This document shows positions 1 through 16,547 of a stretch of 64,000 nucleotides of DNA, in pieces. Each line of letters starts with the position of its first letter. Positions within the stretch are counted from its first letter, which is position 1. Under the pieces are notes generated by a model. The model was given only the letters and a program-made list of their open reading frames with translations. It had not been told where the DNA came from and did no database searches. A program made the position numbers and the translations under genes. This DNA is from an uncultured Syntrophaceae bacterium. Its GTDB lineage: Bacteria > Desulfobacterota > Syntrophia > Syntrophales > UBA5619. Where the stretch lies: contig CAZWTL010000004.1 of assembly GCA_964637025.1 (NCBI GenBank), forward strand, positions 34,508-98,507. Direction: 5' to 3'.

Positions 1-386
1 GTCAGCCATTCGCGGAGCTGTTTCCCCACGTCGGGATAGAGGGGGGTCTTCTGCAATTTGTCCACGGGAACCCAGGCGATGTCGAGGGAGTGGGTGTGGT
101 CCGGCCGGACCTTGGGGGTCCCGCGGATCTCGACGGCCTCGAAAACGACGTGCAGGGTCTGGGGATGGCGCTTGGTGGCGGGCGCCTCGCCGATCATGAT
201 GACATCACCGACATCGAGTTTGACCCCGAGTTCGTCCCGCCATTCATCCACGATCGCCTCACGCAGCGGTTTGTCTTGATCCACGCCCCCGCCGGGCAGG
301 GAGAACACCTCCTTGCCGCCATAGACGTACTTCATACAGAGAATCTCCCCGTCCCTCTCGAATACCGCCGATACCCTGACCCGCAT
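1..386 (-). CDS. NUDIX-fold hydrolase, partial (runs off left edge; absent from ORF track)
   Basis: Manual translation from ATG at 386 (AAGGAGG RBS upstream): MRVRVSAVFERDGEILCMKYVYGGKEVFSLPGGGVDQDKPLREAIVDEWRDELGV..., a Nudix-box-like LPGG..E...ELG pattern; open to the window edge. Confidence 0.75.
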   Translation of the reverse strand, partial: MRVRVSAVFERDGEILCMKYVYGGKEVFSLPGGGVDQDKPLREAIVDEWRDELGVKLDVGDVIMIGEAPATKRHPQTLHVVFEAVEIRGTPKVRPDHTHSLDIAWVPVDKLQKTPLYPDVGKQLREWL

Positions 387-494
387 AAATCCTCCTTTAC
401 CCTCTCATCACGGGCGATCAAAAGCCGGGCCGGGCGGCCCGGGTTCAGCCCCGATCCCTTCCCTTGCGCATTGGGGCAGCACAGGCTGCCGCCT

Positions 495-1577
495 TCACCG
501 TTGAATGCGGGCCGACCCGCCTCTGGCGAACGCGTGGACCTGTTCCGCCGTCGCCATGGTCGTGTCGCCCGGAAATGTCGTCAACAGCGCGCCGTGCGCC
601 CAGCCCAGATCGACCGCCTCCTGTTCCGGCAAGCCGCTGAGCAGGCCATGGAACAGGCCCGACGCGAAGCCGTCCCCGCCGCCGACACGGTCATGGACGT
701 CCAGGTCGCAGACCGGCGAAATGTAGGTCCGGCCGTCGATCCAGGCCACGGCGCCCCAACGGTGCCGGTTGGCCGAATGGACTTCCCGCAGGGTCGTCGC
801 CACGATCTTGATCCGCGGGAATTTCCCGATGACATGGTCGATCATCCCCAGGAAGGCGCCGGGATCGAGTTTGGACTTCGCCTCGATTTCAGGACCGGGA
901 ATTCCGAGCCCCAGCTGCAAGTCCTCCTCGTTTCCGACCAGCACGTCCACATGCTCGACGATGCCCCTGACGACCGACTGCGCCCGTTCCGCCCCGCCCC
1001 GCAGGTTCCAGAGTTTGCCCCGATAGTTCATGTCGAACGAAACCGTTGCCCCCGCATTCCGGGCGGCCTTCATCCCTTCGACGACCAGATCGCCGGTGGT
1101 TTCCGACAACGACGCGAAGATGCCGCCGCTGTGGAACCAGCGAACGCCGCCGGCAAAGATCGACTTCCAGTCGAAATCGCCCGGCTTGAGACGGGCCGCC
1201 GCCTCGTTGGCGCGGTTGTAGAATACGACGGGCGGCCGAACGCCCTGCCCGCGGTCGCTGAAAACGGTGGCCATGTTGGGTCCGGTCGCGCCGTCGTGCT
1301 TGAAACGTTTGTAGAACGGTTTGACCCCCATCGCCCGGACCCGCTCCGCGATCAGATCGCCGACGGGATAATCCACCATGGCGGTGACGATGCCGGTCCT
1401 CATGCCGAAGCAGTCGGACAGGTTGGCCGCGCAGTTGAATTCGCCGCCGCTGACATGAATCGCGCAGTGCGTCGCCTTCCGGAACGGCACAATCCCGGGG
1501 TCCAGCCGGTGAACCAGCGCCCCGATGGAAAGGAAATCCAGGGCGCCCTCGCTGGGGATGTTCAGGCCGTATCGCAT
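495..1577 (-). CDS. kdgK: PfkB-family sugar kinase, 2-keto-3-deoxygluconate kinase-like
   Basis: GGEFNCAANL, YNRANEAAA, HSGGIFASLS, DRVGGGDGFASG motifs typical of KDG kinases. Confidence 0.8.
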   Translation of the reverse strand: MRYGLNIPSEGALDFLSIGALVHRLDPGIVPFRKATHCAIHVSGGEFNCAANLSDCFGMRTGIVTAMVDYPVGDLIAERVRAMGVKPFYKRFKHDGATGPNMATVFSDRGQGVRPPVVFYNRANEAAARLKPGDFDWKSIFAGGVRWFHSGGIFASLSETTGDLVVEGMKAARNAGATVSFDMNYRGKLWNLRGGAERAQSVVRGIVEHVDVLVGNEEDLQLGLGIPGPEIEAKSKLDPGAFLGMIDHVIGKFPRIKIVATTLREVHSANRHRWGAVAWIDGRTYISPVCDLDVHDRVGGGDGFASGLFHGLLSGLPEQEAVDLGWAHGALLTTFPGDTTMATAEQVHAFARGGSARIQR

Positions 1578-1589
1578 CTCCTTCTCCTC

Positions 1590-3068
1590 TTATCCGTTAT
1601 CGTCTTTCTTCCAGACGGTGGATGTCGCGCCGCCTCCGCGTCCGGTCCAGTCGGTATGGAAGTACTCGCCCCGGGGCCTGTCGACGCGCTGGTAGGTGTG
1701 CGCGCCGAAATAATCGCGCTGCGCCTGGAGCAGGTTCGCCGGCAGCGATCCGCGCCGGTATCCGTCGAAAAACGTCAGAGCGCTGGATATCGCCGGTGCC
1801 GGGATGCCCTTCCGGACCGCCTTGGAGACGACGCGCCGCCACCCTGCCTGCGCCGCGTCGATCTGCCCCGAAAAGTAGGGGTCCAGGAGCAGGTTCGTGA
1901 GTTGCGGGTTCCGTTCGAAGGCCTCCCTGATCCGGCCCAGGAAGGCCGACCGGATGATGCAGCCGCCCCGCCACATGAGCGCTATGCCGCCGTAGTTGAG
2001 ATTCCAGCCGTACGCCTTGGCGGCGGCGCGCATCAACATGTAGCCCTGGGTATACGAGATGAGCTTCGAAGCGTAGACCGCCTCTTCCAGATCACGGATG
2101 AACGCCTTCCGCTCCCCGGCGATACGGGACGGGGGTCCCGCAAGCACGGAGGACGCTGCGACGCGCTCGTCCTTCAGCGCTGAAAGCGCGCGGCCCAGCA
2201 CCGCCTCGACGATCATCGTCAGCGGGACGCCCTGTTCCAGCGCGGAAATGCCGGTCCATTTGCCCGTCCCCTTCTGTTCGGCGGCATCGAGGATCTTGTC
2301 CACCAGCGGCCGGCCGTCCTCGTCCCGGTATGCGAGGATGTCGCGCGTGATCTCGATCAGGTAAGAATCGAGCCGGCCCCGGTTCCAGTCCGCAAAGACC
2401 TCGTGCATCCGAGGCACCTTCATTGCGAGGCCTTCCCGCATCAGATGATACGCCTCGCCGATCAATTGCATGTCGCCGTATTCGATGCCGTTGTGAACCA
2501 TCTTGACATAGTGGCCCGCGCCGTTTTCCCCGACCCATTCGCAGCACGGCGCGCCGTCCGCCCGGGCTGCGATCCCCTGGAAAATCGCCTGGACGTGCCG
2601 CCACGCAGCTGGAGATCCCCCGGGCATGATCGATGGGCCGCGCCGCGCGCCCTCCTCGCCGCCCGAGACGCCGGTCCCGATATAGAGGAGCCCTTTCGAC
2701 TCGACCTGCGCAACGCGGCGGATCGTGTCGTTGTAATTCGAGTTGCCGCCGTCGATGATTACGTCCCCCCTGTCCAGAAGCGGGATCAGCTTGCCGATGA
2801 AAACGTCCACCGCCGGACCGGCCTGAACCATCAGCATCACGCGGCGGGGCCTTTTCAGCATGCCCGCCAATTCCCTGAGCGAATGGGCGCCCTGGATCCG
2901 CCTGCCCCGGGCCCCGCCGCCGAGAAATTCGTCCACCTTGGAGACGGTGCGGTTGAAAACCGCCACCGAAAAACCGTGGTCGTCCATGTTCAAAGCCAGG
3001 TTCTGCCCCATGACCGCCAAGCCGATCAGACCGATATCCGCCTTTTTCGCCGTTGCCTCTCTCTTCAA
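1590..3068 (-). CDS. gnd: NADP-dependent 6-phosphogluconate dehydrogenase (decarboxylating)
   Basis: IGLIGLAVMGQNLALN, GVSGGEEGA, GHYVKMVHNGIEYGDMQ, QRDYFGAHTY; TTG start. Confidence 0.97.
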   Translation of the reverse strand: MKREATAKKADIGLIGLAVMGQNLALNMDDHGFSVAVFNRTVSKVDEFLGGGARGRRIQGAHSLRELAGMLKRPRRVMLMVQAGPAVDVFIGKLIPLLDRGDVIIDGGNSNYNDTIRRVAQVESKGLLYIGTGVSGGEEGARRGPSIMPGGSPAAWRHVQAIFQGIAARADGAPCCEWVGENGAGHYVKMVHNGIEYGDMQLIGEAYHLMREGLAMKVPRMHEVFADWNRGRLDSYLIEITRDILAYRDEDGRPLVDKILDAAEQKGTGKWTGISALEQGVPLTMIVEAVLGRALSALKDERVAASSVLAGPPSRIAGERKAFIRDLEEAVYASKLISYTQGYMLMRAAAKAYGWNLNYGGIALMWRGGCIIRSAFLGRIREAFERNPQLTNLLLDPYFSGQIDAAQAGWRRVVSKAVRKGIPAPAISSALTFFDGYRRGSLPANLLQAQRDYFGAHTYQRVDRPRGEYFHTDWTGRGGGATSTVWKKDDNG

Positions 3069-3070
3069 AG

Positions 3071-4336
3071 TCAGCCTCCGCCCGACAGACGATAGAGGAT
3101 CTCTCCGGCGCGGTCCACGAACAGGACGCCGTCATCCTCGCGGCCGGCATAATCCTCGATCCGGATCTTGGCCGGGTCCATCCATCCCAGGCCGATCCGC
3201 CGACATCTCTCCTCCGGAATGGCCGTGGCCAGTACCACCCTGACGTCAGGCGTCTCGATCCCGTTTTCATAGCAGCCGGTTCCGCAAACGTGCGTCGAAT
3301 GGGCTGCGACGCCCCGGGGAACCTTGCAGAGGAGATCCGGCCGGGCGAGGAAATAGTCGCGCACGTGGTAGCCGATCCGTTCGATCTGATCCCCCCAGGA
3401 CGAGGAAAGCTCGTGGATGTGCGGGGCATAGACGATCAGCGTGCCGCCCGGCTCCACGACCTGCTCCAGCTTGTAGACCACCTTGCCGGCAGTCCAGATC
3501 TCGTCGTACATCCCAGGCGCCCGGCCAAGGACCGTCCGGAAAGCACGCTCCTTCTCCACGATGTGGTGCACCGCCGACAGATCCGCGGCGGCTGACCAGG
3601 CCTCTCTCGCGTCGCCGGTGAACAGGCCGCGCAACCGGGCCTTTGAATCAACCACCATCGCCAGGCAATGGATCGGCCGATCGATGAGCCCCATCGCCCT
3701 GTGGATCACCTCCCGTACGGGCGTCTCCTTCCGGCCGATGATCTTGCGGCAGGTCATCAGCGCCCCCAGCCAGTGGAAAAAATGGAGGAACTCGCCGCCG
3801 GAGACGCCGGGGAAAAGGTACTTGGCCCCCCCGGAAAACCCGGCCACCTCGTGGGGGAAGACCGGCCCGAGAATGACGAGCAGGTCGTAGTCGAAAACGG
3901 CCCGGTTGATGTCGATCGGCACCCGTTCCCGCAGCAGGCCCCCTGAAACCGCGTCCGATTCCTCCTCGGAGAGCTCGCCGATCCGCCGGAAGGTATCCGG
4001 CCGATCCCAGCGGTGACAGGAAAACGAGGACGACCGGAAGAGGCCCCCTGGGTCCGCGCCGCCGATTCCGTAAAGCGTCAGGATCTCCTCGGCCGCCATC
4101 ACGGGGTGGGTCCCCAGGGCCACCATGAAATCGAGTCTCTCGGCCCTGGATCCGATCACCTCCGCCAGCAGCCGGACCATCATCGGCAGGGGGCATGTCC
4201 TCGTTCCATCCGGGGTCAAAACCAGAACGCGTTTGCCCGCATACAGGGAAGGAGGGGTCTGGGCGGCGATGAGTTCCCGAACCTTCTGTTCCGTCAGGAC
4301 CGGTCCGTTCCCGCCGCTGCGTTCGATTCCGCTCAT
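3071..4336 (-). CDS. LarA-family (nickel-pincer cofactor) racemase/epimerase
   Basis: PDGTR, ALGTH, FPHEVAGFSGGAK, FHW, TAGK motifs match LarA catalytic positions; start moved to ATG 4336 (MSGIER). Confidence 0.85.
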   Translation of the reverse strand: MSGIERSGGNGPVLTEQKVRELIAAQTPPSLYAGKRVLVLTPDGTRTCPLPMMVRLLAEVIGSRAERLDFMVALGTHPVMAAEEILTLYGIGGADPGGLFRSSSFSCHRWDRPDTFRRIGELSEEESDAVSGGLLRERVPIDINRAVFDYDLLVILGPVFPHEVAGFSGGAKYLFPGVSGGEFLHFFHWLGALMTCRKIIGRKETPVREVIHRAMGLIDRPIHCLAMVVDSKARLRGLFTGDAREAWSAAADLSAVHHIVEKERAFRTVLGRAPGMYDEIWTAGKVVYKLEQVVEPGGTLIVYAPHIHELSSSWGDQIERIGYHVRDYFLARPDLLCKVPRGVAAHSTHVCGTGCYENGIETPDVRVVLATAIPEERCRRIGLGWMDPAKIRIEDYAGREDDGVLFVDRAGEILYRLSGGG

Positions 4337-4352
4337 GGACCCATGACCGCTG

Positions 4353-4865
4353 TCAGGGCATCTCCTCCCGCTGTCGGAGGAGACGTTCATAGACCGCCAG
4401 ATCCTGCCGGGAGAAACAGCAGAAGATCACCTCCGGAGGATCCGCCAGGGAGGCGTCCGCGTCCTTCACGGCATCCACGGCGATCCGGGCCGCCTCTTCG
4501 ATCGGATATCCGTAGATGCCCGTGCTGATGGAGGGGAACGCAATCGATCGCAAACCTTTCTCCACAGCGAGCGCCAACGATCTCCGGTAGCAGCTCGCCA
4601 GGAGTTCCGCCTCGCCCCTTCCGCCGCCGCGCCAGACCGGCCCCACCGTATGGATGACGAATCGGGCCGGTAGCCGGTATCCAAAGGTGATTTTGGCATC
4701 CCCCGTATCGCAGCCCCCGAGCTTCCGGCATTCCTCAAGAAGTTCGGGTCCGGCCGCGCGGTGGATGGCGCCGTCCACACCGCCTCCCCCGAGAAGCGAG
4801 CGGTTGGCCGCATTGACGATCGCATCCACGTTGAGCGTGGTGATGTCCGCTTGCACCGCTTTCAT
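4353..4865 (-). CDS. Macro-domain O-acetyl-ADP-ribose deacetylase (YmdB-like)
   Basis: [29 protein letters not shown] and [15 protein letters not shown]; start at [10 protein letters not shown]. Confidence 0.95.
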
Positions 4866-5294
4866 GGCTCCATCCTTCAGCTCCCCATGGTCCACCTCCG
4901 GTCCCTGGAATTGCCCACGAGAGGCAAAGGCCGAACCCGGCAGAACACCGTATGTTCTATTCTATTGCGTAATGCCAACCCCCTTTGTCAAGGAAAATGT
5001 TCCCGGACCCCTTCCCCGGCGGGAAGCTCCTCGATTTTGCATTGCATGTGGGAATGTTTCAGGAGAGGCCCGGGTCCGGAGCTCGTCGGCAGACCCTGCC
5101 GCTGAACGCGCACCGCTTGCGGAAGCAAGGAGGTCCGCCCCGGGCGCGCGAAGCGGGATGCGATCATCAAGGCGCCGGCGGTTTCGGCACCCCATCCGGC
5201 CTCAGCCGAAGGGCGGGAAATCCGCTGCCCTGTCGGGGCGTGCGGAGATTTCGCCTGCTGGTCCGACCTCAGCGCGGCGGCCGTTTGCTGGAAC

Positions 5295-6161
5295 TCATTT
5301 TGAAGGCGACGGCCGCGTGTTCCATCCGAGGACGGCAAGCTGCAGCCGGTCCGCCATCCGCGCGGGAAGCAGCCTGAAGACGGCGAGAACCGCATAGGTG
5401 CGAAGGGGCACGACACGGCGCACCGGCGGCCGGGGCCCCACGATCGCCCGTTCGACCGCCCGGGAGACGCATTCCGGCCCGACTCCGATCCAGTCGAATC
5501 CCTTGCGAATCCTTTCCACCCTTCGGAAAAGCCGGGCGTATGGAGAGTCCGGAGCGCCGCACTTGCCGATGGTCTTCATCGCGCGCTCGGCGAACTCCGT
5601 GCGGACGATTCCCGGTTCGATCAGAATCAGCCTGAGGCCGAACGGATAGAGTTCGCGGCGCAATGCGTCCGAAAGGGATTCAACGGCGTACTTCGAGGCG
5701 TTGTAGGCCCCCATGATCGGAAACGTGATCCGGCCGCCGGCGCTCCCGATGTTGACGATCCGTCCGGCTCCGCGCTCCCGCATTTTCGGCACAAAGGCCC
5801 TGGTCACGGCCATCAGGCCGAATACGTTTGCGTCGAACTGGGCGCGAAGATCGTTGTCGGAGATCATCTCCAGAGGTCCAAGCACGCCGTAACCCGCGTT
5901 GTTGACGAGGGCGTCGAGTCCATAGCCTTGGGTCCGCCTGTCCACCTCGGCCACGGCGGCGCTGATGGACCCGGCGTCCGTGACGTCCAGCACGAAGGTG
6001 TCGAGCGGCCCGTCTCCGGCCTCGGCCTTTAACGCACGGAGCGATTCGCTCCGGCGACCCGTCGCGAAAACGTGAAAGCCTCGATCCGCGAGATGAAGGG
6101 CGGTATGGCGGCCGATTCCCGCGGTCGCCCCCGTAATCAGTACAACCGGTCCCCGACCCAT
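5295..6161 (-). CDS. Classical short-chain dehydrogenase/reductase
   Basis: TGATAGIG, NNAG, YNASK; GGAGG upstream of ATG 6161; the long N-terminal extension in the ORF track is spurious. Confidence 0.9.
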   Translation of the reverse strand: MGRGPVVLITGATAGIGRHTALHLADRGFHVFATGRRSESLRALKAEAGDGPLDTFVLDVTDAGSISAAVAEVDRRTQGYGLDALVNNAGYGVLGPLEMISDNDLRAQFDANVFGLMAVTRAFVPKMRERGAGRIVNIGSAGGRITFPIMGAYNASKYAVESLSDALRRELYPFGLRLILIEPGIVRTEFAERAMKTIGKCGAPDSPYARLFRRVERIRKGFDWIGVGPECVSRAVERAIVGPRPPVRRVVPLRTYAVLAVFRLLPARMADRLQLAVLGWNTRPSPSK

Positions 6162-6277
6162 TTTCTCCATCCTCCACCCCTGAAGTGGAATGGCCTGTTG
6201 AAATAGCCCGCGACCCCATCCCTTCAGCCGCAAACGCCGAGGTCTAGGGTATCGTCTTCTGTGCCGGGCAGCCGATT

Positions 6278-7174
6278 TCAGACAACGTACAAGGCACATG
6301 CCGCCGAGAGGCCGGATCCGGCGGCGATGAACAGGATGCGGTCGCCCCGCTTCAAAAGCCCTTTTCCCGCCAGATCGTGGTAACCCAGTGTCAATGAGGA
6401 CGTATGGGGGTCTCCGTACGTCTCGCACAGATCCACCACCCGGGCGCGTCCCTTCGGGTCCACGAAGCGGGCGATTTCCGCGCCGAATCCCTTCGCGGGC
6501 TGAGACGTCACAATGAAATCGATGTGGTCCGGCTTGTCCGCCCCCGACGGGAACCACTCCCCGATCATGGCGGCGGTGAAATCGGAAAGCCGGTCACGGT
6601 AACCATCCTCGACGAGGTAGTCCATGCATTCCCTGCCCCGGCGGCCGTTCTCCGTCAGATTGACATGGGCGGAAAATCCGTGGCCGCCGCTGCCGGACGT
6701 CGCGCAATGGAAACGGGAAAATCCTTGACTATCCTCTTCAGAACGGGTGAGCAACACCGCGGCGGCCACGCTTTGAAACGGGAAATCGGGCCGGGGGGAC
6801 TTCGAGGGATGAATATCGCCCGACACAATGAGCGCCGATTGCGAAGAGCCCGCTTTGAAAAGGGTGTCGACAACCCTGGCTGCCGTGATGAGGCCGCAAT
6901 CCCCGTCGTTGATGTCGAAGGACAGCGTGGTTTTCCGCATCGGCTCCTCGGCGGTCGGGTCGAGGTTCATGCCCAGTTGCTGCTGGATCAGGGTCGCCAT
7001 CGCCGGTTCGATGATGTTGTCGTCGCGGAAGACCCCGACATTGATGAGAAGGTCGACATCCTCCATCGCCATCCGGGCCCGTGCCAGGCAATTCCGCGCG
7101 GCAAATACAGCCATGCCTACTGAACTCTGCGGGCCGTCCGGAGAGGCGAAAGAGGCCTTAATGATCGTACCCAT
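6278..7174 (-). CDS. Catalytically degenerate FabH/OleA-like ketosynthase subunit (LstB/PqsB-type partner)
   Basis: Thiolase-fold features (SFDINDGDCGL, ALIVSGD, GDRILFIAAGSG), but Asp/Ser/Asp sit at the Cys/His/Asn positions; retains ..IIEPAMA Glu; start overlaps the upstream gene's 3' end, GGAGG RBS. Confidence 0.8.
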   Translation of the reverse strand: MGTIIKASFASPDGPQSSVGMAVFAARNCLARARMAMEDVDLLINVGVFRDDNIIEPAMATLIQQQLGMNLDPTAEEPMRKTTLSFDINDGDCGLITAARVVDTLFKAGSSQSALIVSGDIHPSKSPRPDFPFQSVAAAVLLTRSEEDSQGFSRFHCATSGSGGHGFSAHVNLTENGRRGRECMDYLVEDGYRDRLSDFTAAMIGEWFPSGADKPDHIDFIVTSQPAKGFGAEIARFVDPKGRARVVDLCETYGDPHTSSLTLGYHDLAGKGLLKRGDRILFIAAGSGLSAACALYVV

Positions 7175-8204
7175 AACACGCCTCCAGCTGCCCGATCCGG
7201 GCGGATACAAAACCGATACCGATACCTGACGCCAGCGCCAGGAAGAGAATCTTCGAATGCCCCTTCAGACGCTTTTGGGAGAGATGATCGTGCAGCACCA
7301 TAAAATGGGACGTCGATGCGGTATTGCCGAATCGATCGATGCTGATCAGTGCTTCCGGCAGGACTTCCAGGTGTTTTGAACAGAGACTCAGCGCCGACTG
7401 GATGGCCCGGGTCGAGGTCTGGTGGGGGATGACATAGTCGAAATCCCTTCCCGTGAAACGATGCTTATCCATCATGAACCGAATGACCTGAGGCAGCCTC
7501 TTGATCGTTTCCCGGTGGATTTCAACCGCCTCGGCATACATGGCCAATCCGGGATTCTCATTGCTGGGCATGGCGAGACACAGATCGGCAAAACCGGCAA
7601 TGGTCAGGAAATCGCTGAAATCGATCCCTTCGCGTTCATCGGTCGTTCCATCCATGATCAATGCCACGCCCGAATCGCCGACGGTGAGCGACGCGAACTG
7701 GGGATCGATGGGTTCCCTGATCTCCTTGAGGGCCGTCTCGGAAATCGGAGTGATGCATTCTCCGCTGACAATCAGGCCATTCCGGACCGCTCCGGTCTTG
7801 ATCATATGGTTGAGGATATGGACGCCGGTGAGCATTCCTGCACATGCATTGGTGATTCCGAAACTCATCGTGTCGGACCGCATGCCCAGGCTTGTTTTCA
7901 AGAACTTGCTCATGTCCGGCTTCATCCAGAGATCGAGCCCCCCTTTGAAATTGCTGATCGAGGTGCAGATGATCACGTCCAGGTCCTTGGCGCCGTATCG
8001 GGACCTCCTCAGACAGTCTTCCGCTGCAGCCATCGCAAGGGTATAGGAATCCTGGCGATCGGACCTCCAGCGTCTCTCTTTCACGCCGGTCAGGGCCTCC
8101 AGGTCAAAAAACGGCTTGGCCGGCATCCGGTCGATCAATTCCTGCGTGGATACCGTGCGATCCGGCAGGAAAATCCCCATACTTTCGAATTGCCCCTTGA
8201 TCAT
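7158..8204 (-). CDS. 3-oxoacyl-ACP synthase III / OleA-like ketosynthase, active subunit
   Basis: Intact triad: C121 (SFGITNAC), H261 (VIPHQTS), N294 (FGNTAS). Confidence 0.9.
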   Translation of the reverse strand: MIKGQFESMGIFLPDRTVSTQELIDRMPAKPFFDLEALTGVKERRWRSDRQDSYTLAMAAAEDCLRRSRYGAKDLDVIICTSISNFKGGLDLWMKPDMSKFLKTSLGMRSDTMSFGITNACAGMLTGVHILNHMIKTGAVRNGLIVSGECITPISETALKEIREPIDPQFASLTVGDSGVALIMDGTTDEREGIDFSDFLTIAGFADLCLAMPSNENPGLAMYAEAVEIHRETIKRLPQVIRFMMDKHRFTGRDFDYVIPHQTSTRAIQSALSLCSKHLEVLPEALISIDRFGNTASTSHFMVLHDHLSQKRLKGHSKILFLALASGIGIGFVSARIGQLEACYGYDH

Positions 8205-8372
8205 GCATCCCTTCCTGTGTTCGCAACCGCGGGACCAAACGTCCCCGTTATGGTGCCGCGGGACTACAGGAAATCCCAGGCTCTGTCAAGAACATTTGGC
8301 TCCCGGGCTGGAAACGCGGACCGATTCAGAGTTTCCCGACGGCTCCGCGCCGTTCCGTTCCTGTTGTGTCCC

Positions 8373-8402
8373 TTGACCTTGAAAAGGTTTATTTCATATA
8401 CT
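8373..8402 (+). promoter_or_regulatory. sigma70-type promoter for the condensation-domain gene
   Basis: TTGACC-18 nt-TATACT, 64 nt upstream of the TTG start. Confidence 0.55.
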
Positions 8403-8465
8403 GCCGGACAGACCCATCGACCCCGATGGCGGCGTTGCCGTCCAGCGGAGAAAGGCTGACCAGGC

Positions 8466-9866
8466 TTGAAAAAGGTTCACAACGGGAGCCCCTGCTCCCC
8501 ACTGGATCCCGCCTCGGAGATCATCCTCTCCTGGGAACGTGAAGGCTTCCCCCAGACCGATTGGACCGCCTTTTCGTTCAAGGGATCGTGCGACATCGAC
8601 GCCCTGAAAGCCGCCCTTCAAGAGGCATTGAGGCGCCGACCGGTGTTTCGATCCCATCTTGTCGTTTCGAAACGCCTTGGGCTTCAAACCTACCGGTGGC
8701 GTATTGCTTCCGAACCGTGTCCGCTGGAGGTGACCGATCTTCGCGGGATAGGAAACCGGCCGGTCGATATGGAGCAGTGGACCCAACAGACCCTTGCCCC
8801 CGTTGTCGAGCGGTATGGGAATAATCTTGCAACGGAATATCCCGCCCGCTTCCTCCTGATGCTTCTGCCGGATGATCATGGCTGTTTTGCGGTGGTCTGG
8901 CATCACGCGTCGACGGACGGCGGCGGCCTGTATGATTTTTTACGCGGCCTCTTCAGCGAATACCATCGTCTGGTCAGGGGGGAAGATCCCGAATGGGCGA
9001 ATGTCGCGGGCCTTCATTCCCAGACGGGAAGGAGTGAGGAGATCGAGCCGATGCACTGGGGGCGGTTTTTCAAGGAAGCGGCCGTCCAGTTGATCCGCTA
9101 TCCCGTGCAGGCGTCCGCCCAGTTGATCAGCTCCCCTTCCGGCCCCCCGGAACGTCATGTAATCCGTTTTCGTTTCGACGACCCTCTTCTGCAGGAGGCC
9201 CTTCGCCAAAGGGCCAGACGCGACCAAGGCACCCTTTCGGACCTCTGTCTTGCGGCGGCCAAGTTGGCTCTCCAGGAATGGAACGAATACAGGGGGAACC
9301 CCCCGCGGGTGATGCACCACTGGCTCGCCGTGAATCAGCGGCTCCGCCAGTCGCGAATGCGGACGGATGCAACGAACAATCCCCTCATTGCGATCAACAT
9401 CCCGAGCCTGCCCGGTGACCGAAAAGATCCGCAAGCCCTGCTGCGGCACGTCATCGGCCACCGCAGGCGGATGCTCGCTGAAGGCTTTGACGTGGCGCTT
9501 TACCGTTTGGCGAACGGGATGACCCGTGCGGGCCGGGTGTTGCCGATCGCCATCAGGCACCCCGTTCTGAGGCGGATCATGGATCACCGGCTTTCTTTCT
9601 TCCTGTCCAATGTCGGGGTGGTTTGGCCCAGGATCGAAAACGGGAAAGCGACCGGAGAAACCGCCATCAGGGTCGTCGGCGATATGGAACTGGAGGACAT
9701 CCACAGCAGCATCGGGACGACGTTCAACAATCCGATCTGTCTGATCCTCCGGACGTTCCTGGGCCGGCTGTACTTTAACTTCACGACCGGAAGACATCGA
9801 ATTTCGGACGCGGATGGGCAGGCGTTCTCGCAACTCGTCGTGGATAAAGTGATGGCCTATCTGTGA
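8466..9866 (+). CDS. Stand-alone condensation-domain / CoA-dependent acyltransferase-fold protein
   Basis: HHxxxDG motif (VVWHHASTDGGG), N-terminal LKAALQEALRRRPVFRS helix, 466 aa with no A or T domain. Confidence 0.8.
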   Translation: MKKVHNGSPCSPLDPASEIILSWEREGFPQTDWTAFSFKGSCDIDALKAALQEALRRRPVFRSHLVVSKRLGLQTYRWRIASEPCPLEVTDLRGIGNRPVDMEQWTQQTLAPVVERYGNNLATEYPARFLLMLLPDDHGCFAVVWHHASTDGGGLYDFLRGLFSEYHRLVRGEDPEWANVAGLHSQTGRSEEIEPMHWGRFFKEAAVQLIRYPVQASAQLISSPSGPPERHVIRFRFDDPLLQEALRQRARRDQGTLSDLCLAAAKLALQEWNEYRGNPPRVMHHWLAVNQRLRQSRMRTDATNNPLIAINIPSLPGDRKDPQALLRHVIGHRRRMLAEGFDVALYRLANGMTRAGRVLPIAIRHPVLRRIMDHRLSFFLSNVGVVWPRIENGKATGETAIRVVGDMELEDIHSSIGTTFNNPICLILRTFLGRLYFNFTTGRHRISDADGQAFSQLVVDKVMAYL

Positions 9867-9908: not shown

Positions 9909-10751
9909 TCAATCCTTCAGAGCCCCCATCGTCAAGCCCTGGACGATGGACTTGCGGACGAAAAACGCAAAGACCGAGACGGGGAGCACGATCAGGGTCG
10001 CTGCCGCACCGATACCGGCCCAGTCGATCTTCCCGTAGGAGATGAAGTTGTAGACCGCCACCGGAACGGTCTTGGTCCTAGGACCCGAGAGGATCAGCGA
10101 AAAGAGGAACTGGTTCCACGAGAAGATGAAGGACATGATCGCCGAGGTGGCGATCCCGTTGCGTACGAGGGGCAGCACGATCCTGAGGAAGCTCTGCCAG
10201 CGGGAACAGCCGTCGATCATCGCCGCATCCTCCAGTTCGCCCGGCATGCTCTCGAAAAACGAGACCATCAGCCAGATCACCATCGGCATCGTGATGATCA
10301 GGTGGGTGATCGTGAGCGCCGTAAAGGTGTCGATCAGCCTCAGATAACGAAAGATGATGTACCAGGGCAGCAGGTAGCTCACGAACGGCGTCATCCGGGC
10401 CACGAGGATGAGTATGCCGATCTTGCCCTGCCGGTACTTCGCGATGGAGTAGGCCGCCGGCAGCCCCAGCACCAGCGAGATGGCCGTGGCGAGCGTGGCG
10501 ATCACGAGGCTGTTCATCAGATAACGGAAAAAATGGTGCTGCTGGAAAACCGCCCTGAAGTTCTCCAGCGTGGGCATAAAAATGAATTCCGGGGGGTAGG
10601 AGATGTTCTGGACGCCGGTCTTGAGTCCGGTGAGGATCATCCAGACGAAGACGAAGAGGGGCGGCGCGCACAACGCAACGGCTCCGGCGTAAAAGAGGGT
10701 CTTTCTGACGACGTCGCCCATCCGGCTTCCCGGCATGTTCATCCACCCCAA
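9909..10751 (-). CDS. Carbohydrate ABC transporter permease (MalG-like)
   Basis: EAA loop ELEDAAMIDGCS; multiple TM segments; exact start uncertain. Confidence 0.92.
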   Translation of the reverse strand: MGWMNMPGSRMGDVVRKTLFYAGAVALCAPPLFVFVWMILTGLKTGVQNISYPPEFIFMPTLENFRAVFQQHHFFRYLMNSLVIATLATAISLVLGLPAAYSIAKYRQGKIGILILVARMTPFVSYLLPWYIIFRYLRLIDTFTALTITHLIITMPMVIWLMVSFFESMPGELEDAAMIDGCSRWQSFLRIVLPLVRNGIATSAIMSFIFSWNQFLFSLILSGPRTKTVPVAVYNFISYGKIDWAGIGAAATLIVLPVSVFAFFVRKSIVQGLTMGALKD

Positions 10752-10910
10752 TCTCTGAAAAACCTGATCCGGCCCTGACGGTCCTTTTCCGGCCTAGCGC
10801 CTCCTGGCCCCGCTCCGCATTCAGCCCTCTCACCTCTTCCCCGCGACCGTTTCCGCGCCCCAAGGCTTCCGGAACATCTCCCCGCAATCCGGTTTATGCC
10901 GTCCCTCTGC

Positions 10911-11837
10911 TCAGATCGCGACCGCGCTTCGCCTGAAGCGGTTCATGACCACATTGAACACGAGCACGATCAGAAACACGACCACCATCAGGGCCGATCC
11001 GTAGCCGGCCTTGAAGAAGCTGAACCCGACATTGTAGGAATAAAGGTAGAGCGTCTCGGACGCAATACCCGGCCCGCCCTGGGTGATCGTGTAGATCATG
11101 TCGAACTCCTTGAGGTTGTCCAGGGAGCGGAGCATGAGCGCCGCAACCAGCACGGGCCGGATCAGCGGCAGCGTGATGTAGCCGAAGATCTGCAGGGCGT
11201 TCGCCCCGTCGATCCGGGCCGCCTCGTACGGATCCTGGGGTAGGGACTTGAGTCCCGCCAGTACGATCAGCGTGATCATCGGGGTCCATTTCCAGACGTC
11301 CACCATCACCAGGGCAGGGATCACCATGGTTTCGCTGCTGACCCAAAGGCTCGAAGGCAGCCCCACACTCGTGAGCAGATAGTTGAGCACCCCGATTTCG
11401 GGATTCAGCATGATCCTCCAGATCAGCGCGACGGCAACCGGCGTCGCGGCGAAGGGGATGATGTAAATCGCCTGAACCAGTTCGCTTCCCTTGAAGGCGC
11501 GGTTGAAGTAGAGCGCGATCATCAGGCCCAGGACCAGTTCCAGGGCCAGGCTCGCGCCGCTGAAACAGACCATGACCTTCACGCCGTTCCAGACGCGCTC
11601 GTCGCCGAAGAGTTCAACGAAATTTTCGAGGCCGATGAAGCGGGGCTGTCCCAGACCGATGGTCCATTTGGTGAAGGTCAGATAGAGGTTGAAGGCGATG
11701 GGGAGGATGACGATCAGAAACAGGACCGCCACCGCCGGCGCCGGGAAAAAAAGGGGCTGGCGGCGGTCAACGAACCGGGAAATGGAGGCCAGAAACTGCT
11801 TCATAGACCCAAGGCCGATCGGGGCAGTGCCATGCAT
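10911..11837 (-). CDS. Carbohydrate ABC transporter permease (MalF-like)
   Basis: YEAARIDGAN EAA loop, DVWKWTPM; alternative start ATG 11804. Confidence 0.92.
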   Translation of the reverse strand: MHGTAPIGLGSMKQFLASISRFVDRRQPLFFPAPAVAVLFLIVILPIAFNLYLTFTKWTIGLGQPRFIGLENFVELFGDERVWNGVKVMVCFSGASLALELVLGLMIALYFNRAFKGSELVQAIYIIPFAATPVAVALIWRIMLNPEIGVLNYLLTSVGLPSSLWVSSETMVIPALVMVDVWKWTPMITLIVLAGLKSLPQDPYEAARIDGANALQIFGYITLPLIRPVLVAALMLRSLDNLKEFDMIYTITQGGPGIASETLYLYSYNVGFSFFKAGYGSALMVVVFLIVLVFNVVMNRFRRSAVAI

Positions 11838-11861
11838 CGAGGCTGTTCAAAATCCAGGGGT

Positions 11862-11901
11862 AAAAGCGGGACCGCCCGCTGCGTTCCAAGCGGGCAGTCC
11901 C
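11862..11901 (-). terminator. Intra-operonic stem-loop after the binding-protein gene (partial terminator/mRNA stabiliser)
   Basis: GGGACUGCCCGCU/AGCGGGCGGUCCC 13-bp stem with one G-U pair on the minus transcript, followed by UUUU. Confidence 0.6.
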
Positions 11902-11915
11902 CCAAACCCGCAGGG

Positions 11916-13223
11916 TTACCTTTCCATCTTCTTGTCCATCAGTTCGGCCGCCTTCCTGGCCGCCTCCGCCACGTCCTTCCCCTCGATCGCGGCCACAATC
12001 ACCTGGCCGGTGATGTCGCGGATCTCGGGGACGTTGATCACCGGCGGGTTCCACTGGCCCTGACCGATATCAAAGGACTTCATGGTGGCCGCGGTCCAGT
12101 CAGGCTGCTTGTCCCCCGCCTTGTATTCCTTGGATTTCCAGGAGGAGGCCCGCCCCGACGGCACCCCGGCGAGAAGCGCGCCCAGACAGTTCTCCTTGTT
12201 GGTCGCCCACTGGATGAAGAGCCACGCCGCCTTCTGTTTCTCGGGCGGGCTCGTCTTGCCGATCGACAGGCTCCAGTTGGAAACATGGGGCAGCCGAAGC
12301 CCTTTCGGTCCGGCCGGGATCACCGCATAACCGACCTTGCCGGCGACCTTGGACTCCTTGGGATTCTCGTAGAGGGCCTTGAAGACGTTCGCGTCGTAGA
12401 TCATGGCCGCCTTCCCTTCCATGAAGATGGAGGTGCTCTCCGCCCAGTGGAGCATCGTGCCTCCCTGCGGACCGTAGAACCTCAGGAGGTCGCCGTAGAA
12501 CTTGAAGGCCGCAATGTCCTCGGGGGATGCGAGGTTCGACTGGCCCTGGGCGTTGGTCCAGGAGCCGCCGAAGGTGTAGAGAAAATCGACCCACTGGGAG
12601 GTCGCCGCCGCTCCCTTCCCGCGCAGCGTGATGCCGACCATCTTCCTGCCATCCACCTCCTTGCCATGAAAATACTTCGCGACCTGTTCGAGTTCCTTCA
12701 TGGTGGAGGGGACCTTCTGTTTGAATTTCGCGAAGAGATCCTTGCGGTAGGCCAGAAGCGACGTCTCGGCGTTGATCACGATGCCGATCTGCTTGCCTTC
12801 CACCGAGGAGGCCTTCGCGAAGCTGGCGAAGAAATCCTTCGGATCCCAGGCCGGATCGGTCAAGGCGGGATCCGCGATGTAGGCATCCAGGGGCTGGAGC
12901 CATCCCGCCTTCCAGTAATGGAGGTCATCCTGGCCCGGCATGATCATGTACCCGTCCACCTTCCCGCCGGCGTTGAGCTCGATCGTCCGCTTGTTCCGGT
13001 ACTGATCCTCCGGAAAGGTTTCCATGACCACCTTGATGCCGGTCAGTCTCTCGAACTCGGGAATCTTCGGCTCGATAAAGGTCGTAAAAGGATGCTTGTT
13101 CATCAGAAAACGGATTTCGGTTCCCTGGCACTGCTTCCAATCCACTGCAGCAAAAGCCGTGGCCGAAGCCGCCCCTGCGCAGAGCAGGACCGCCAACACA
13201 ACGTACACCTTTGCTCTTTTCAT
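11916..13223 (-). CDS. Sugar ABC transporter substrate-binding protein
   Basis: Signal peptide, SBP_bac_1-like architecture, GAGGAGG RBS. Confidence 0.92.
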   Translation of the reverse strand: MKRAKVYVVLAVLLCAGAASATAFAAVDWKQCQGTEIRFLMNKHPFTTFIEPKIPEFERLTGIKVVMETFPEDQYRNKRTIELNAGGKVDGYMIMPGQDDLHYWKAGWLQPLDAYIADPALTDPAWDPKDFFASFAKASSVEGKQIGIVINAETSLLAYRKDLFAKFKQKVPSTMKELEQVAKYFHGKEVDGRKMVGITLRGKGAAATSQWVDFLYTFGGSWTNAQGQSNLASPEDIAAFKFYGDLLRFYGPQGGTMLHWAESTSIFMEGKAAMIYDANVFKALYENPKESKVAGKVGYAVIPAGPKGLRLPHVSNWSLSIGKTSPPEKQKAAWLFIQWATNKENCLGALLAGVPSGRASSWKSKEYKAGDKQPDWTAATMKSFDIGQGQWNPPVINVPEIRDITGQVIVAAIEGKDVAEAARKAAELMDKKMER

Positions 13224-13317
13224 GGAACGCCTCCTCGGTTCAATGGGTTTGGAAATTAGCCCCTCCGCCCCGCGGTCCCGGACCGCACAGGGGCGTCATT
13301 CGCCGTTCACCCGTCTA

Positions 13318-14418
13318 TCACACGATGGTTCGTGAAGTATCCTTGTCGAAAAGGTGGGTCTTGGCCATCCTGAAGTCCACCTCCAGGACCTGTCCCACGG
13401 TCAGCGGGCGTTCGGGCACCTCCATCCGAGCCACGATCGAGTGGACGCCGCAGGTCAGATAGACGAAGATCTCCGATCCCAGGGTTTCCACCACGTCCGC
13501 CCGCGCCGTGACGGTGTTGCCCTCGCTCCTGCCCGCCGCGGGGTGCGCCGCGATGTCTTCGGGCCGCAAGCCGAAGATCACCGGCCGGCCGGCATACGGA
13601 TCGAGCCGCGCGTGAAACGCCTCCGGCACCCGGACCCGGAACGCCCCGGCATCGACGTGCCATCCCCCCTCCTCTCGGATCAGCGTCGCCTCGATGAAAT
13701 TCATGGCCGGCGAGCCGATGAAGCCCGCCACGAAACGGTTCGCCGGCTGGCCGTAAACCTCCAACGGCACCCCCGTCTGCTGCAGCGCGCCGTTGTGCAG
13801 GATGAAGATCCGGTCCGCCATGGTCATGGCCTCGACCTGATCGTGGGTGACATAGATGATCGTGGCGCCCAGGCGACGGTGGAGCTTGCTGATCTCGGCC
13901 CGCATCGCGACCCGCAGCTTCGCGTCGAGGTTGGAAAGCGGCTCGTCGAAGAGAAAAACCTTGGGTTTGCGGACGATGGCCCGCCCGACCGCCACCCGCT
14001 GACGCTGTCCTCCCGACAGCTCCTTCGGCTTGCGCTCCAGCAACTCCTGGATGCCGAGGATATCGGCTGCCTCCTGGACCCTGGCTTCGATCTCCTCACG
14101 GGCGAACTTCCGAATCTTGAGCCCGAATCCGAGATTGTCCCGGACGTTCATGTGGGGATAGAGGGCATAGTTCTGGAAAACCATGGCGATGTCGCGGTCC
14201 TTGGGCGCCATGTCGTTGACGAGGGTGTCTCCGATGAAGATTTCACCGGAGGTGATCGTCTCCAGACCCGCGATCATCCGCAGCGCCGTGGTCTTTCCGC
14301 ACCCGGAGGGTCCGACCAGCACCGCGAATTCACGGTCCCGAATCTCGATGCTCAGGTGGTCGACCGCCGTGACCGCACCGAACCGTTTCACGACGTTCTT
14401 CAGGATCACATTGGCCAT
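13318..14418 (-). CDS. Sugar ABC ATP-binding protein (MalK/UgpC family)
   Basis: GPSGCGKT, LSGGQRQRVA, LFDEPLSNLD, C-terminal TOBE region. Confidence 0.96.
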   Translation of the reverse strand: MANVILKNVVKRFGAVTAVDHLSIEIRDREFAVLVGPSGCGKTTALRMIAGLETITSGEIFIGDTLVNDMAPKDRDIAMVFQNYALYPHMNVRDNLGFGLKIRKFAREEIEARVQEAADILGIQELLERKPKELSGGQRQRVAVGRAIVRKPKVFLFDEPLSNLDAKLRVAMRAEISKLHRRLGATIIYVTHDQVEAMTMADRIFILHNGALQQTGVPLEVYGQPANRFVAGFIGSPAMNFIEATLIREEGGWHVDAGAFRVRVPEAFHARLDPYAGRPVIFGLRPEDIAAHPAAGRSEGNTVTARADVVETLGSEIFVYLTCGVHSIVARMEVPERPLTVGQVLEVDFRMAKTHLFDKDTSRTIV

Positions 14419-14449: not shown

Positions 14450-15304
14450 CTAGATGGCGAAGGAGGAAAAACCTCCGTCCACCGGAACCACGACGCCGGT
14501 CACAAAGGCGGAGGCGTCGGAAAGCAGCCACACCAGCGTGCCGATCAGGTCGCACGGCTCGCCGAATCGGCCCATGGGCGTGTGGGCGATCACCTGGCGG
14601 GCGCGGGGCAGAAACCCGCCCGTCTCGGGATCGATGTGGAGGAAACGCAGTTGTTCCGTCAGAAAGAAACCCGGGGCCAGCGCGTTCACGCGGACGCCCG
14701 CATGGGCGAAATGGACCGCCAGCCACCGCGTAAAGTTGCTCACGGCCGCCTTTGCGGCGGAATAGGCGGCCACCTTGGTCAGCGGCACCAAGGCGCTCAT
14801 CGAGGAGATGTTGACAATCGCCCCCCGGCCGCGTGACGCCATCTCCCGGGCAAAGGTCTGGGTCGTCAGGAACGTCCCCATGAAATTGAGGTTGAAAACG
14901 TGCCGGAAACCCTCCGGGTCCAGATCGAAGAAGGACTGGCCGGGCACGCTCCCCGTTGTGCGGGGCCCCTCGAATTCGAAAGCGGTGCTGCCCCGTGGGT
15001 CGTTTCCGCCGGCGCCGTTGATCAGAAAATCAGGGGCTCCCCAGACGGCGGAGACGTTGTCGTGACACTCCCGAAGCCGGCCCGTATCCAGCACGTCGCA
15101 CTGCAGCGCGAGGGCGCTCCCTCCGGCCCGGACAATCGCCTGCGCCCGGTTTTCGGCCTTTTCGAGGCTGATGTCGAGAACCGCCACCCTCGCGCCCATG
15201 GCGCCCAGCGCGTCCGCCATCGCGCCGCAGAGATCTCCGCCGCCGCCGGTGACGACCCCAACCCTTCCCTCCAGATCGAATTGTCGCAGGATTTCGCCCT
15301 TCAT
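14450..15304 (-). CDS. SDR oxidoreductase, D-mannonate oxidoreductase (UxuB-type SDR)-like
   Basis: TGGGGDL, NGAGGNDP, YSAAKAAVSNFTRWLAVHF, NALAPGFFLTEQ; start at MKGEILRQF. Confidence 0.75.
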   Translation of the reverse strand: MKGEILRQFDLEGRVGVVTGGGGDLCGAMADALGAMGARVAVLDISLEKAENRAQAIVRAGGSALALQCDVLDTGRLRECHDNVSAVWGAPDFLINGAGGNDPRGSTAFEFEGPRTTGSVPGQSFFDLDPEGFRHVFNLNFMGTFLTTQTFAREMASRGRGAIVNISSMSALVPLTKVAAYSAAKAAVSNFTRWLAVHFAHAGVRVNALAPGFFLTEQLRFLHIDPETGGFLPRARQVIAHTPMGRFGEPCDLIGTLVWLLSDASAFVTGVVVPVDGGFSSFAI

Positions 15305-15326: not shown

Positions 15327-16379
15327 CTAAAGCCCCCCCAGTCCTTCAGCAAAGGTTGTGACCTCGCCCCAGAAGGGCATGGAGACGGAGCAGCCGTGGC
15401 GGGCCACCACCATGGCGCCGCAGGCGTTTCCGAGCCGGGCCGCCCGCCGGAGGTCCCAACCCTTGACGTAACCATAGAGGAATCCCGCCCCGAAGGCGTC
15501 GCCGGCGCCGAGGATATTCTGCACCTTGACCGGAAAGCCCGGCACATCCTCGGCCTTTTCGCCCCGGCGATGTATCCGGCAACCCGCCTCTCCCCGCTTC
15601 TCGACGACAATCCCGGGGCCTTGCCCCAGCATGAAGTCCACGCATGCGGCCGTCTCCCCGCTTACACGGACATCGCTCTGCTGGGAATGGGTCATCCGGA
15701 CGGATCGTGCATCGTTCAGCATCACGGCGTTGATTTCATCCTCTGTGCCTATTGCGACATCGGTGAAAGGCAGGACGGAACGGATGGAGGTCCCGAAGGC
15801 GCGCGGGTCATGCCACAGCTTCGGCCGGAAATCCAGATCGAGCACAACAGCGGTCCCGACCTTCCGGGCAATCTCCACCGCGCAGAGGGTGGCGCTCCGG
15901 CTCGGCTCCTGGCTCAGGTTCGTGCCAGCAAACTGGAACACGCGGCTCCGGGCGATCGGAGCGGCCAGAACATCATCGATCGTCAGCGCGATGTCCGCGC
16001 AGTTGTCACGGTAGAAGACCAGCGGAAATTTGTCGGGCGGTTCGATGCCCAGGATGACGGCGCCCGTCTGCCGCCCCGGCTTCCGGGGACAAAAACGGAT
16101 ATCGACCCCTTCCTCGGTCAGGAAATGGGCCACGAAGTCGCCAACGGGATCCTCGCCAAAGGCGGTCAGAAGCGCCGATTTCAATCCCAGACGGCGGCAT
16201 CCCACGCTCATGTTGGTGGGGGAACCGCCCACATAGGCGGCAAAGCCGCGGATATGGACGAAATCGGCCCCGACATCGTTGCTGTACAGGTCGATGCCGG
16301 AACGGCCCATGTGAAACGTGTCGTACGCGCGCCTTATCCGGCGGGGATTCTGGGACACCATTCCACGATTTCCCGTCAT
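15327..16379 (-). CDS. iolC: PfkB kinase, 5-dehydro-2-deoxygluconokinase-like
   Basis: MGRSGIDLY, YVGGSPTNMSVG, FYRDNCAD, LDLDFRP, GAGDAF; start 16379 or 16361. Confidence 0.75.
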   Translation of the reverse strand: MTGNRGMVSQNPRRIRRAYDTFHMGRSGIDLYSNDVGADFVHIRGFAAYVGGSPTNMSVGCRRLGLKSALLTAFGEDPVGDFVAHFLTEEGVDIRFCPRKPGRQTGAVILGIEPPDKFPLVFYRDNCADIALTIDDVLAAPIARSRVFQFAGTNLSQEPSRSATLCAVEIARKVGTAVVLDLDFRPKLWHDPRAFGTSIRSVLPFTDVAIGTEDEINAVMLNDARSVRMTHSQQSDVRVSGETAACVDFMLGQGPGIVVEKRGEAGCRIHRRGEKAEDVPGFPVKVQNILGAGDAFGAGFLYGYVKGWDLRRAARLGNACGAMVVARHGCSVSMPFWGEVTTFAEGLGGL

Positions 16380-16547
16380 GTCCAATTTCTGGACGATCGA
16401 AATCCTATCGAATCCCAGTCCGCTTGTCCGATGAACGCAACCAAACCTCACGGAGGAGGCAAACACAGCCTCCGATGAGCCTATGCTGCGGACCGATCGC
16501 TCCGGTTTTCATGCAGGAGGAACGGCCCCGGCATTCGGGGATAGCCG

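Follow-up and report, generated by a model that had tools for sequence, protein, structure and literature searches.

The window analysed here is a stretch of 64,000 nt from an uncultured Syntrophaceae bacterium (contig CAZWTL010000004.1 of assembly GCA_964637025.1), an organism that occurs in biogas and wastewater reactors. Three consecutive genes on the minus strand of this window encode a homologue of the nickel-pincer nucleotide (NPN)-dependent lactate racemase LarA, a decarboxylating 6-phosphogluconate dehydrogenase (Gnd) and a kinase of the PfkB family (Table 1; all positions are those of the window). We read this trio as a candidate route from a sugar acid to pentose phosphates. A first-pass annotation, made from the DNA alone, had placed the three genes 2 and 12 nt apart, and direct reading of the junctions confirmed these coordinates and spacings exactly. 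The LarA-like gene and gnd meet as TGA-ct-TTG, with a GGAGG located 6 nt 5' of the TTG, and gnd and the kinase gene meet as TAA-gaggagaaggag-ATG. The ATG of the LarA-like gene, at 4336, lies 16 nt past the stop codon of the macro-domain gene and agrees with the starts of aligned homologues. A longer open reading frame (ORF) beginning at 4390 would run into the macro-domain gene. At the other end, the terminator-like hairpin found beyond the kinase stop codon likely marks the 3' end of the transcription unit. Overall, the trio looks like a single operon.

Table 1 Features of the trio and of its surroundings in the window.
Feature	Position	Strand	Assignment and basis
LarA-like gene, 421 aa	3071..4336	-	NPN-dependent 2-hydroxyacid epimerase, GntE type, group-19-like; predicted D-mannonate/D-gluconate (or 6-phospho-aldonate) 2-epimerase
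gnd, 492 aa, TTG start	1590..3068	-	Decarboxylating 6-phosphogluconate dehydrogenase; TIGR00873 match
gnd-kinase spacer gaggagaaggag, 12 nt	1578..1589	-	Shine-Dalgarno-like; read off the sequence
PfkB kinase, 360 aa	495..1577	-	KdgK-derived sugar-acid kinase; predicted gluconate (or mannonate) 6-kinase
Terminator-like hairpin, 7-bp all-GC stem and T-run	425..442	-	Consensus scan only; just past the kinase stop codon
NUDIX hydrolase gene	3..386		Flanks the trio on the kinase side
Macro-domain gene	4353..4895		O-acetyl-ADP-ribose deacetylase-type; directly upstream of the LarA-like gene
CUT1-type ABC transporter	9909..14418	-	Pfam; ATPase 13318-14418, binding protein 11916-13223, permeases 10911-11837 and 9909-10751
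Short-chain dehydrogenase/reductase (SDR), 'D-mannonate oxidoreductase'	14450..15280	-	Fructuronate reductase-type; NF006132, 361 bits (cut-off 281)
IolC-like PfkB kinase	15327..16466	-	TIGR04382, 375 bits (cut-off 300); pathway membership uncertain

The LarA-like protein is a member of the LarA superfamily, with 71.2 bits against Pfam Lar_N (PF09861) for a cut-off of 23.3; here and below, cut-offs are Pfam gathering scores or curated NCBIfam equivalog thresholds. None of the curated NCBIfam equivalog models reached its cut-off with this protein. The best of them, NPN_18_hexonate (NF052594), gave 155.6 bits for a cut-off of 500, which leaves the protein outside group 18, and the lactate racemase model NF033504 gave 73.4 bits for a cut-off of 460. 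The sole strong match in the PDB is 4NAR (197 bits, full length, E = 4e-57), that is, TM0442 of Thermotoga maritima, deposited as 'putative uronate isomerase'. With such an E-value, this match settles the fold of the window protein. TM0442 is GntE2 (LarAH20), an NPN-dependent D-mannonate/D-gluconate 2-epimerase (Desguin 2020, PMC7583248). Lactate and malate racemase structures (LarA, Mar2 and others) reach only about 35 bits.

Residues were mapped, and signature columns defined, on the annotated sequences of Desguin (PMC7583248, supplement). In the alignment, D43, R46, H77, H162, K172, H188 and K285 correspond to LarA D72, R75, H108, H174, K184, H200 and K298. Hence, the catalytic histidine pair, the NPN-binding lysine and the other cofactor residues are all kept (7/7), in agreement with the intact catalytic motifs noted at first pass. 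The protein also carries the GntE-type signature, with the loop H162-E-V and the motif W281-T-A-G-K285, in which the tryptophan occupies the position of LarA Y294. Its signature columns read D R H H E V K H V W T G K G A A S T H C, against D R H H E V K H V W T A K G L A S T H R in group 19; at the equivalents of LarA P355 and I362, the sub-clade of the window protein carries A and C instead of the L and R of group 19. Identity is 46-47% to the group-19 proteins Plabr_2258, Trad_0660 and Npun_F5335, 27% to the group-18 protein ACP_2683 and 20% to a canonical LarA paralogue. More than 8000 homologues were found in the database, the best 120 of which are 66-98% identical. In the tree, the window protein lies within a superclade of groups 18-20 (SH-aLRT 99), away from the four canonical LarA paralogues of its own genome. 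There it sits in a 55-row Desulfobacterota/Spirochaetota clade of its own (SH-aLRT 96), beside classical group 19, with the branching order among these not settled. Judged from its sequence, the LarA homologue falls into the radiation of D-gluconate 2-epimerases (GntE), where it neighbours group 19. It groups with demonstrated D-gluconate 2-epimerases, as had been proposed from the sequence alone, and an identity as lactate or malate racemase is ruled out by the scores, the signature residues and the tree.

LarA-type enzymes depend on LarB, LarC and LarE for their cofactor, and no larB, larC or larE was found within the 64-kb window. A profile search of the genome located a larE-larB-larC cluster on another contig (C3:116538-118892), all three genes scoring above their curated cut-offs. 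In total, seven ORFs of the genome match Lar_N. For one of these paralogues (L011, G000:C12:4643-5245), a dehydratase gene of the IlvD/Edd family (G000:C12:2782-4347) is found about 300 nt upstream; the dehydratase stays below the cut-off of the edd model with 262 bits, and the arrangement resembles the context of Desguin's group 22.

We then considered the gene neighbourhood of the LarA clade. A genome scan returned 69 loci, 68 of them with a long LarA match, mostly in metagenome-assembled genomes (MAGs) labelled Desulfobacterota (or 'delta proteobacterium') and Spirochaetota. Neighbours were counted in the 41 loci with full 6-kb flanks, after clustering of the neighbouring ORFs and annotation of representatives. 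An SDR is present in 24 of these 41 loci, UxaC in 21, Gnd in 16 and UxaE in 15. A sugar-acid kinase stands near the LarA homologue in 22/41 loci (GntK/IdnK-type in 8, gluconokinase-like FGGY in 11, PfkB in 3). Further neighbours are a TRAP large permease (DctM; 15/41), Eda (8/41) and KduI (6/41), and only 8/41 loci lack all of UxaC, UxaE, KduI, Gnd and a sugar-acid kinase. A typical Desulfocapsaceae operon reads KduI-Eda-SDR-DctPQM-LarAH-UxaC-GntK-Gnd-UxaE, where LarAH denotes the LarA homologue, and two loci (L032 and L081) have the order UxaE-SDR-LarAH-Gnd-PfkB. According to its citation in PMC6978723, this gene set is the one from which Rodionova 2012 proposed gntE-gntK-gnd in T. maritima.

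The second gene of the trio encodes a Gnd (743 bits on TIGR00873 for a cut-off of 427, with PF03446 and PF00393 both matched over their full length), and it is the one full-length copy detected by tblastn in a genome that is 98.6% complete. In this genome, we found neither zwf, encoding glucose-6-phosphate dehydrogenase, nor uxuA, the T. maritima control being positive in both searches. No SKI-type GntK was found in the genome, and no Edd, for which there are only two IlvD-like matches below the cut-off. The single FGGY kinase of the genome, on contig C51, was considered as a gluconokinase and rejected: it is XylB, as it passes the XylB model (400 bits, cut-off 380) and falls short of the gluconokinase model (254 bits, cut-off 649). 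With zwf, SKI-type GntK, FGGY gluconokinase, UxuA and Edd all absent, 6-phosphogluconate can therefore come only from the phosphorylation of an aldonate. The kinase encoded 12 nt downstream of gnd is the only candidate for this step. The same absences remove two other routes, one from gluconate through mannonate and UxuA to 2-dehydro-3-deoxygluconate (KDG), which would need UxuA, and the Entner-Doudoroff route from 6-phosphogluconate, which would need Edd. The first-pass annotation had suggested a bypass of UxuA and Eda. The lack of uxuA and edd fits a bypass of UxuA; eda is present, but in a separate KduI-KduD-KdgK-Eda cluster with its own canonical KdgK. Applied to other trio-bearing genomes, the pathway-hole test gave a mixed picture, in which G003, G005 and G006 are without an SKI-type GntK.

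No uxaC or uxaE was found in the genome either (49 queries, E <= 1e-3), and therefore the entry substrate is not a free hexuronate handled by the isomerase route. This lack would be in line with another sugar acid as the substrate of the LarA homologue, such as the L-gulonate/L-idonate or the D-altronate/D-allonate pair, or an aldarate, with a product that reaches gluconate or 6-phosphogluconate by further steps. For group 19, Desguin 2020 suspected 'an isomer of D-mannonate', or a uronic or aldaric acid (PMC7583248), and the A and C that the window sub-clade has in place of the L and R of group 19 could reflect such a difference. In addition, genes for zinc-dependent alcohol dehydrogenases (Zn-ADH) and Gfo/Idh/MocA dehydrogenases lie 3' of the kinase gene in several metagenome operons. 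We nonetheless consider a different sugar acid improbable: the recurring set of UxaC/UxaE, mannonate-oxidoreductase-type SDR, kinase and Gnd is a complete path only with a link between mannonate and gluconate, and no extra enzyme for the other pairs is consistently present.

The kinase is a PfkB protein by Pfam, and lies outside the known gluconokinase families (TIGR01313, TIGR01314). It also stays far below the KdgK equivalogs NF052444, NF041332 and NF040938, with 27, 121 and 84 bits for cut-offs of 400, 440 and 400. Its top PDB match is the T. maritima KdgK (TM0067, PDB 2AFB; 170 bits), with which it shares the PfkB fold with its lid region and the invariant motifs. In public annotation, the family is named 2-dehydro-3-deoxygluconokinase or 'sugar kinase'. 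Together with the presence of Eda in the genome, this name and this structural match would suit an ordinary KDG kinase that adjoins gnd by chance, the epimerase then running from gluconate to mannonate to feed UxuA, KdgK and Eda. Several observations leave this reading highly improbable. Besides the missing UxuA, the genome encodes a second kinase, a canonical KdgK (C31:15224-16261), whose gene is found with those for two TRAP transporters, KduD, KduI, Eda and an IclR-type regulator. On the same aldolase-kinase fusion model, this canonical KdgK scores 479 bits and the trio kinase 238; on NF041332, the two score 220 and 121 bits. Given this complete KduI/KdgK/Eda module on C31, the organism therefore handles KDG apart from the gnd trio.

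The distribution of the trio kinase also separates it from KdgK. A metagenome scan with the kinase returned at least 589 matches, of which 80 loci, 75-83% identical, were kept. In 26 of the 52 loci with at least 1.5 kb of upstream flank, gnd is directly upstream on the same strand, and in 9 of the 29 with at least 3.2 kb, a LarA homologue is also found upstream. Loci L092, L096, L098, L103 and L105 share the operon UxaE-SDR(mannonate oxidoreductase)-LarAH-Gnd-PfkB, whose SDR matches NF006132 'D-mannonate oxidoreductase' with 361 bits, and five metagenome loci have a transketolase gene 3' of the kinase gene. Among 201 genomes of the window's class, kinase orthologues at least 79% identical occur in only three, always beside gnd; kinase homologues at 42-45% adjoin Eda, and those at 32-37% are found with KduI and Eda. 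In the kinase tree, the clades linked to gnd and LarAH stand apart from the KdgKs linked to Eda and KduI, and both the genome of the window and G205 hold one gnd-linked-type and one Eda/KduI-type kinase. The clade of the trio kinase thus sits with gnd and LarAH instead of Eda, KduI or KduD.

At the residue level, P31, D108, P116, E125, F181 and H272 are common to both gnd-linked clades and differ from both Eda-linked clades. The family-wide motifs are kept (GGxExN, Y-x-R, D-x-N-Y-R, N-E-E-D, T-L-R-E and D-R-V-G-x-G-D), and in KdgK the carboxylate of the substrate is presumably bound by the arginines of Y-x-R and D-x-N-Y-R. To read the clade substitutions, we looked in the literature for the residues with which KdgK contacts its substrate, and found nothing usable. 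With its gnd adjacency, its separate clade and scores below all KdgK cut-offs, the reading as an ordinary KDG kinase is largely refuted, and the trio kinase family is probably an aldonate 6-kinase. This agrees with the first-pass suggestion that the 'KdgK' may act on an aldonate, which its distinct gnd-linked clade and the lack of any other gluconokinase and of zwf in the genome support. To our knowledge, gluconate or mannonate kinases of the PfkB family have yet to be characterised. If the trio kinase is a gluconokinase, it would be a non-homologous replacement of the known families.

Kinase members 81-85% identical are encoded in MAGs labelled Planctomycetota, Anaerolineales and Deltaproteobacteria. 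Such high conservation across phyla, with orthologues in 3 of the 201 class genomes, suggests either extreme constraint or lateral spread. In loci L087-L166, where the kinase is 75-83% identical, the adjacent Gnd is only 51-85% and the LarA homologue only 31-52% identical (77% in L089).

At a larger distance from the trio, the first-pass annotation had pointed to a UxuB-like gene about 11 kb away. This gene is real, and corresponds to the SDR of Table 1, which exceeds the NF006132 cut-off. The CUT1 transporter genes come after it on the same strand. In locus L018 (Syntrophaceae bacterium CG2_30_58_14), orthologues of the four transporter genes, 89-92% identical, end 113 nt before the LarA homologue. 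Locus L020 has the order IolC-like kinase (71% identical, at the start of the locus), SDR (72%), binding protein and two permeases (83-89%), LarAH and GntK. Because the genes are contiguous in L018 and L020, the long-range link of the SDR and the transporter to the LarA gene is supported in the window, where the corresponding array is split by about 5.5 kb (4353-9866). In addition, metagenome loci have SDR orthologues, 47-54% identical, immediately before the LarA homologue. From this synteny, the SDR is likely the source of mannonate, and uptake for the pathway probably runs through the transporter.

From the gene identities, the catalytic and cofactor residues, the operon anatomy, larBCE, the neighbourhood and the lack of other 6-phosphogluconate routes, we infer which substrates are used, in which direction flux runs and how the steps are ordered, as follows. 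The ABC transporter encoded 5.5-11 kb upstream would import a compound, from which the fructuronate-reductase-type SDR would make D-mannonate. The LarA homologue, equipped with the nickel-pincer nucleotide made by LarB/C/E, would invert C2 of mannonate through a transient hydride transfer and yield D-gluconate. The KdgK-derived PfkB kinase would then phosphorylate gluconate at C6, and Gnd would oxidatively decarboxylate 6-phosphogluconate to ribulose-5-phosphate. We give a probability of about 0.6 to this reading of the trio as a one-operon 'aldonate to pentose-phosphate' shunt, in which mannonate is epimerised and then phosphorylated. The route from fructuronate through mannonate, gluconate and 6-phosphogluconate to Gnd, outlined at first pass, is supported by the GntE placement, larBCE, the pathway holes and the synteny, and stays a prediction drawn from genes.

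Several points weigh against this shunt. Each of the two characterised GntEs (Corynebacterium glutamicum GntE1 and T. maritima GntE2) is only 35% identical to the window protein, and the KM of the group-19 enzyme GntE1 for mannonate is 120 mM, its authors doubting that mannonate is the native substrate (PMC7583248). The lack of uxaC and uxaE leaves the origin of fructuronate or mannonate without an assignment in the genome. Among the trio-bearing genomes, G004 has an SKI-type GntK, and G001 and G002 hold gluconokinase-like FGGY genes. As many as 26 of the 52 kinase orthologue loci with adequate flank do not adjoin gnd. On the side of expression, the run X1, labelled 'METAGENOMIC RNA-Seq', gave contigs of 10-21 kb at a flat depth of about 15 across positions 1-6000 of the window; it behaves like DNA, which it probably is, and was rejected as evidence of expression.

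The order of the two middle steps could also be the reverse, as in Lactobacillus suebicus. In that case, the PfkB protein would phosphorylate D-mannonate at C6, and the LarA homologue would act as a 6-phospho-D-mannonate 2-epimerase, directly supplying Gnd with 6-phosphogluconate. Both activities were demonstrated in L. suebicus extracts, in which free mannonate was left unepimerised (Valk 2020, PMC6978723); the genes for them are unidentified in that work, and we found no later paper naming them. As in the window, the L. suebicus route leads from mannonate to 6-phosphogluconate and Gnd and bypasses UxuA, KdgK and Eda, and it differs in the order of its steps. The KM of 120 mM of GntE1 for free mannonate and those of 9-17 mM of GntE2 and LarAH15 make a phosphorylated native substrate conceivable. 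A KdgK-derived kinase would see C4-C6, which by our chemical reasoning are identical in KDG, gluconate and mannonate, and the pocket motif of the group-19 type is H-S-T-H, against H-V-I-N in group 20.

On the other hand, orthologous LarA homologues, 57-60% identical to the window protein, have as neighbours either GntK/IdnK-type kinases (154 bits on TIGR01313 for a cut-off of 114) or FGGY kinases that resemble gluconokinases, and the GntK/IdnK-type kinases beside orthologous epimerases argue for gluconate as the first product. E. coli GntK rejects mannonate, according to Cohen 1950 as cited in PMC6978723. Both characterised GntEs act on free mannonate, and no phosphate-binding motif is identifiable from the sequence alone. 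We regard the reversed order as a tentative alternative, on the unlikely side. It is doubtful, in a broader form, that phosphorylated aldonates are the native substrates of this large LarA clade, matching the activities that Valk 2020 detected biochemically in L. suebicus. If true, this would account for the very high KM that GntE1 shows for free mannonate, and would add a phospho-sugar-acid class of substrates to nickel-pincer enzymology.

Our preferred reading, epimerisation followed by phosphorylation, is best set against the T. maritima system. There, GntE2 is encoded in a hexuronate cluster together with gntK (TM0443) and gnd (TM0438); it aligns with the window protein over the full length, and both proteins have the H-E-x loop and the motif W-T-x-G-K. 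In contrast, T. maritima has zwf and uxuA, and the genome of the window has neither; GntE2, with its 35% identity, also lies on a separate branch. The gluconate kinase of T. maritima, we assume, is of the FGGY type and not PfkB. A route from mannonate through gluconate into the pentose phosphate pathway was proposed for that organism by Rodionova 2012, as cited in PMC6978723 and PMC7583248. Hence, the idea of the route (Thermotoga) and the epimerase activity (groups 19 and 20) are already known. What is new is the placement of the large Desulfobacterota/Spirochaetota clade, the evidence that a distinct clade of KdgK-derived kinases takes the kinase step, the lack of zwf, by which Gnd comes to depend on this kinase, and the synteny that links the ABC transporter and SDR genes.

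Comparison with group 19, to which C. glutamicum GntE1 belongs, shows a nearly identical signature and a uronate-linked context of the group. In contrast, the window protein is in a separate clade, GntE1 is as distant as GntE2 and of uncertain native substrate, and Gnd and the kinase are not among the group-19 neighbours in the available part of Desguin's Table S1. For group 18 (NF052594), the table gives an association with an SDR (36%), Gnd (32%) and ribokinase-family kinases (16%), and its member in metagenome locus L153 is flanked by the same PfkB clade; the window protein differs from it by its score below the cut-off and its 27% identity to ACP_2683. In L153 (2417-5895), two PfkB kinases, 76% and 44% identical to the trio kinase, flank a LarA homologue that truly belongs to group 18, with 662 bits on NF052594, and a mannonate-oxidoreductase-type SDR comes next. 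With respect to the T. maritima KdgK, the trio kinase belongs to a separate clade and has a gnd/LarAH context in place of Eda/KduI. Finally, the Lactobacillus plantarum lactate racemase LarA (5HUQ) shares the superfamily, the catalytic histidine pair, the NPN-tethering lysine and the nickel-ligand histidine, and differs in that it scores only 34 bits, its F-F loop being replaced by E-V and its Y-Q by W-T in the window protein.

The shunt would offer an assignment for a very widespread LarA clade, for a PfkB family now labelled KdgK, and for gnd in anaerobes without glucose-6-phosphate dehydrogenase. It would also be of interest for the redox-neutral conversion of pectin sugars. The genome holds, independently of the trio, a complete unsaturated-uronate module (G000:C31:10579-21045), whose Eda has a C-terminal extension of about 110 aa.

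In the window, the block of about 5.5 kb between the ABC transporter genes and the LarA gene looks inserted when set against L018 and L020. It contains the macro-domain gene, an SDR gene, a pair of ketosynthase genes and a divergent condensation-domain gene, the ketosynthase/condensation cluster extending over 5295-9866. Upstream of the SDR at 14450-15280, the same strand carries genes for the IolC-like kinase, a tandem class II aldolase and a tungsten-type aldehyde:ferredoxin oxidoreductase (15327-20309). Of the genes that flank the trio itself, the NUDIX neighbour is seen again in L087 and L168, and the macro-domain neighbour in L089. A connection of these two genes with ribose-5-phosphate is conceivable.

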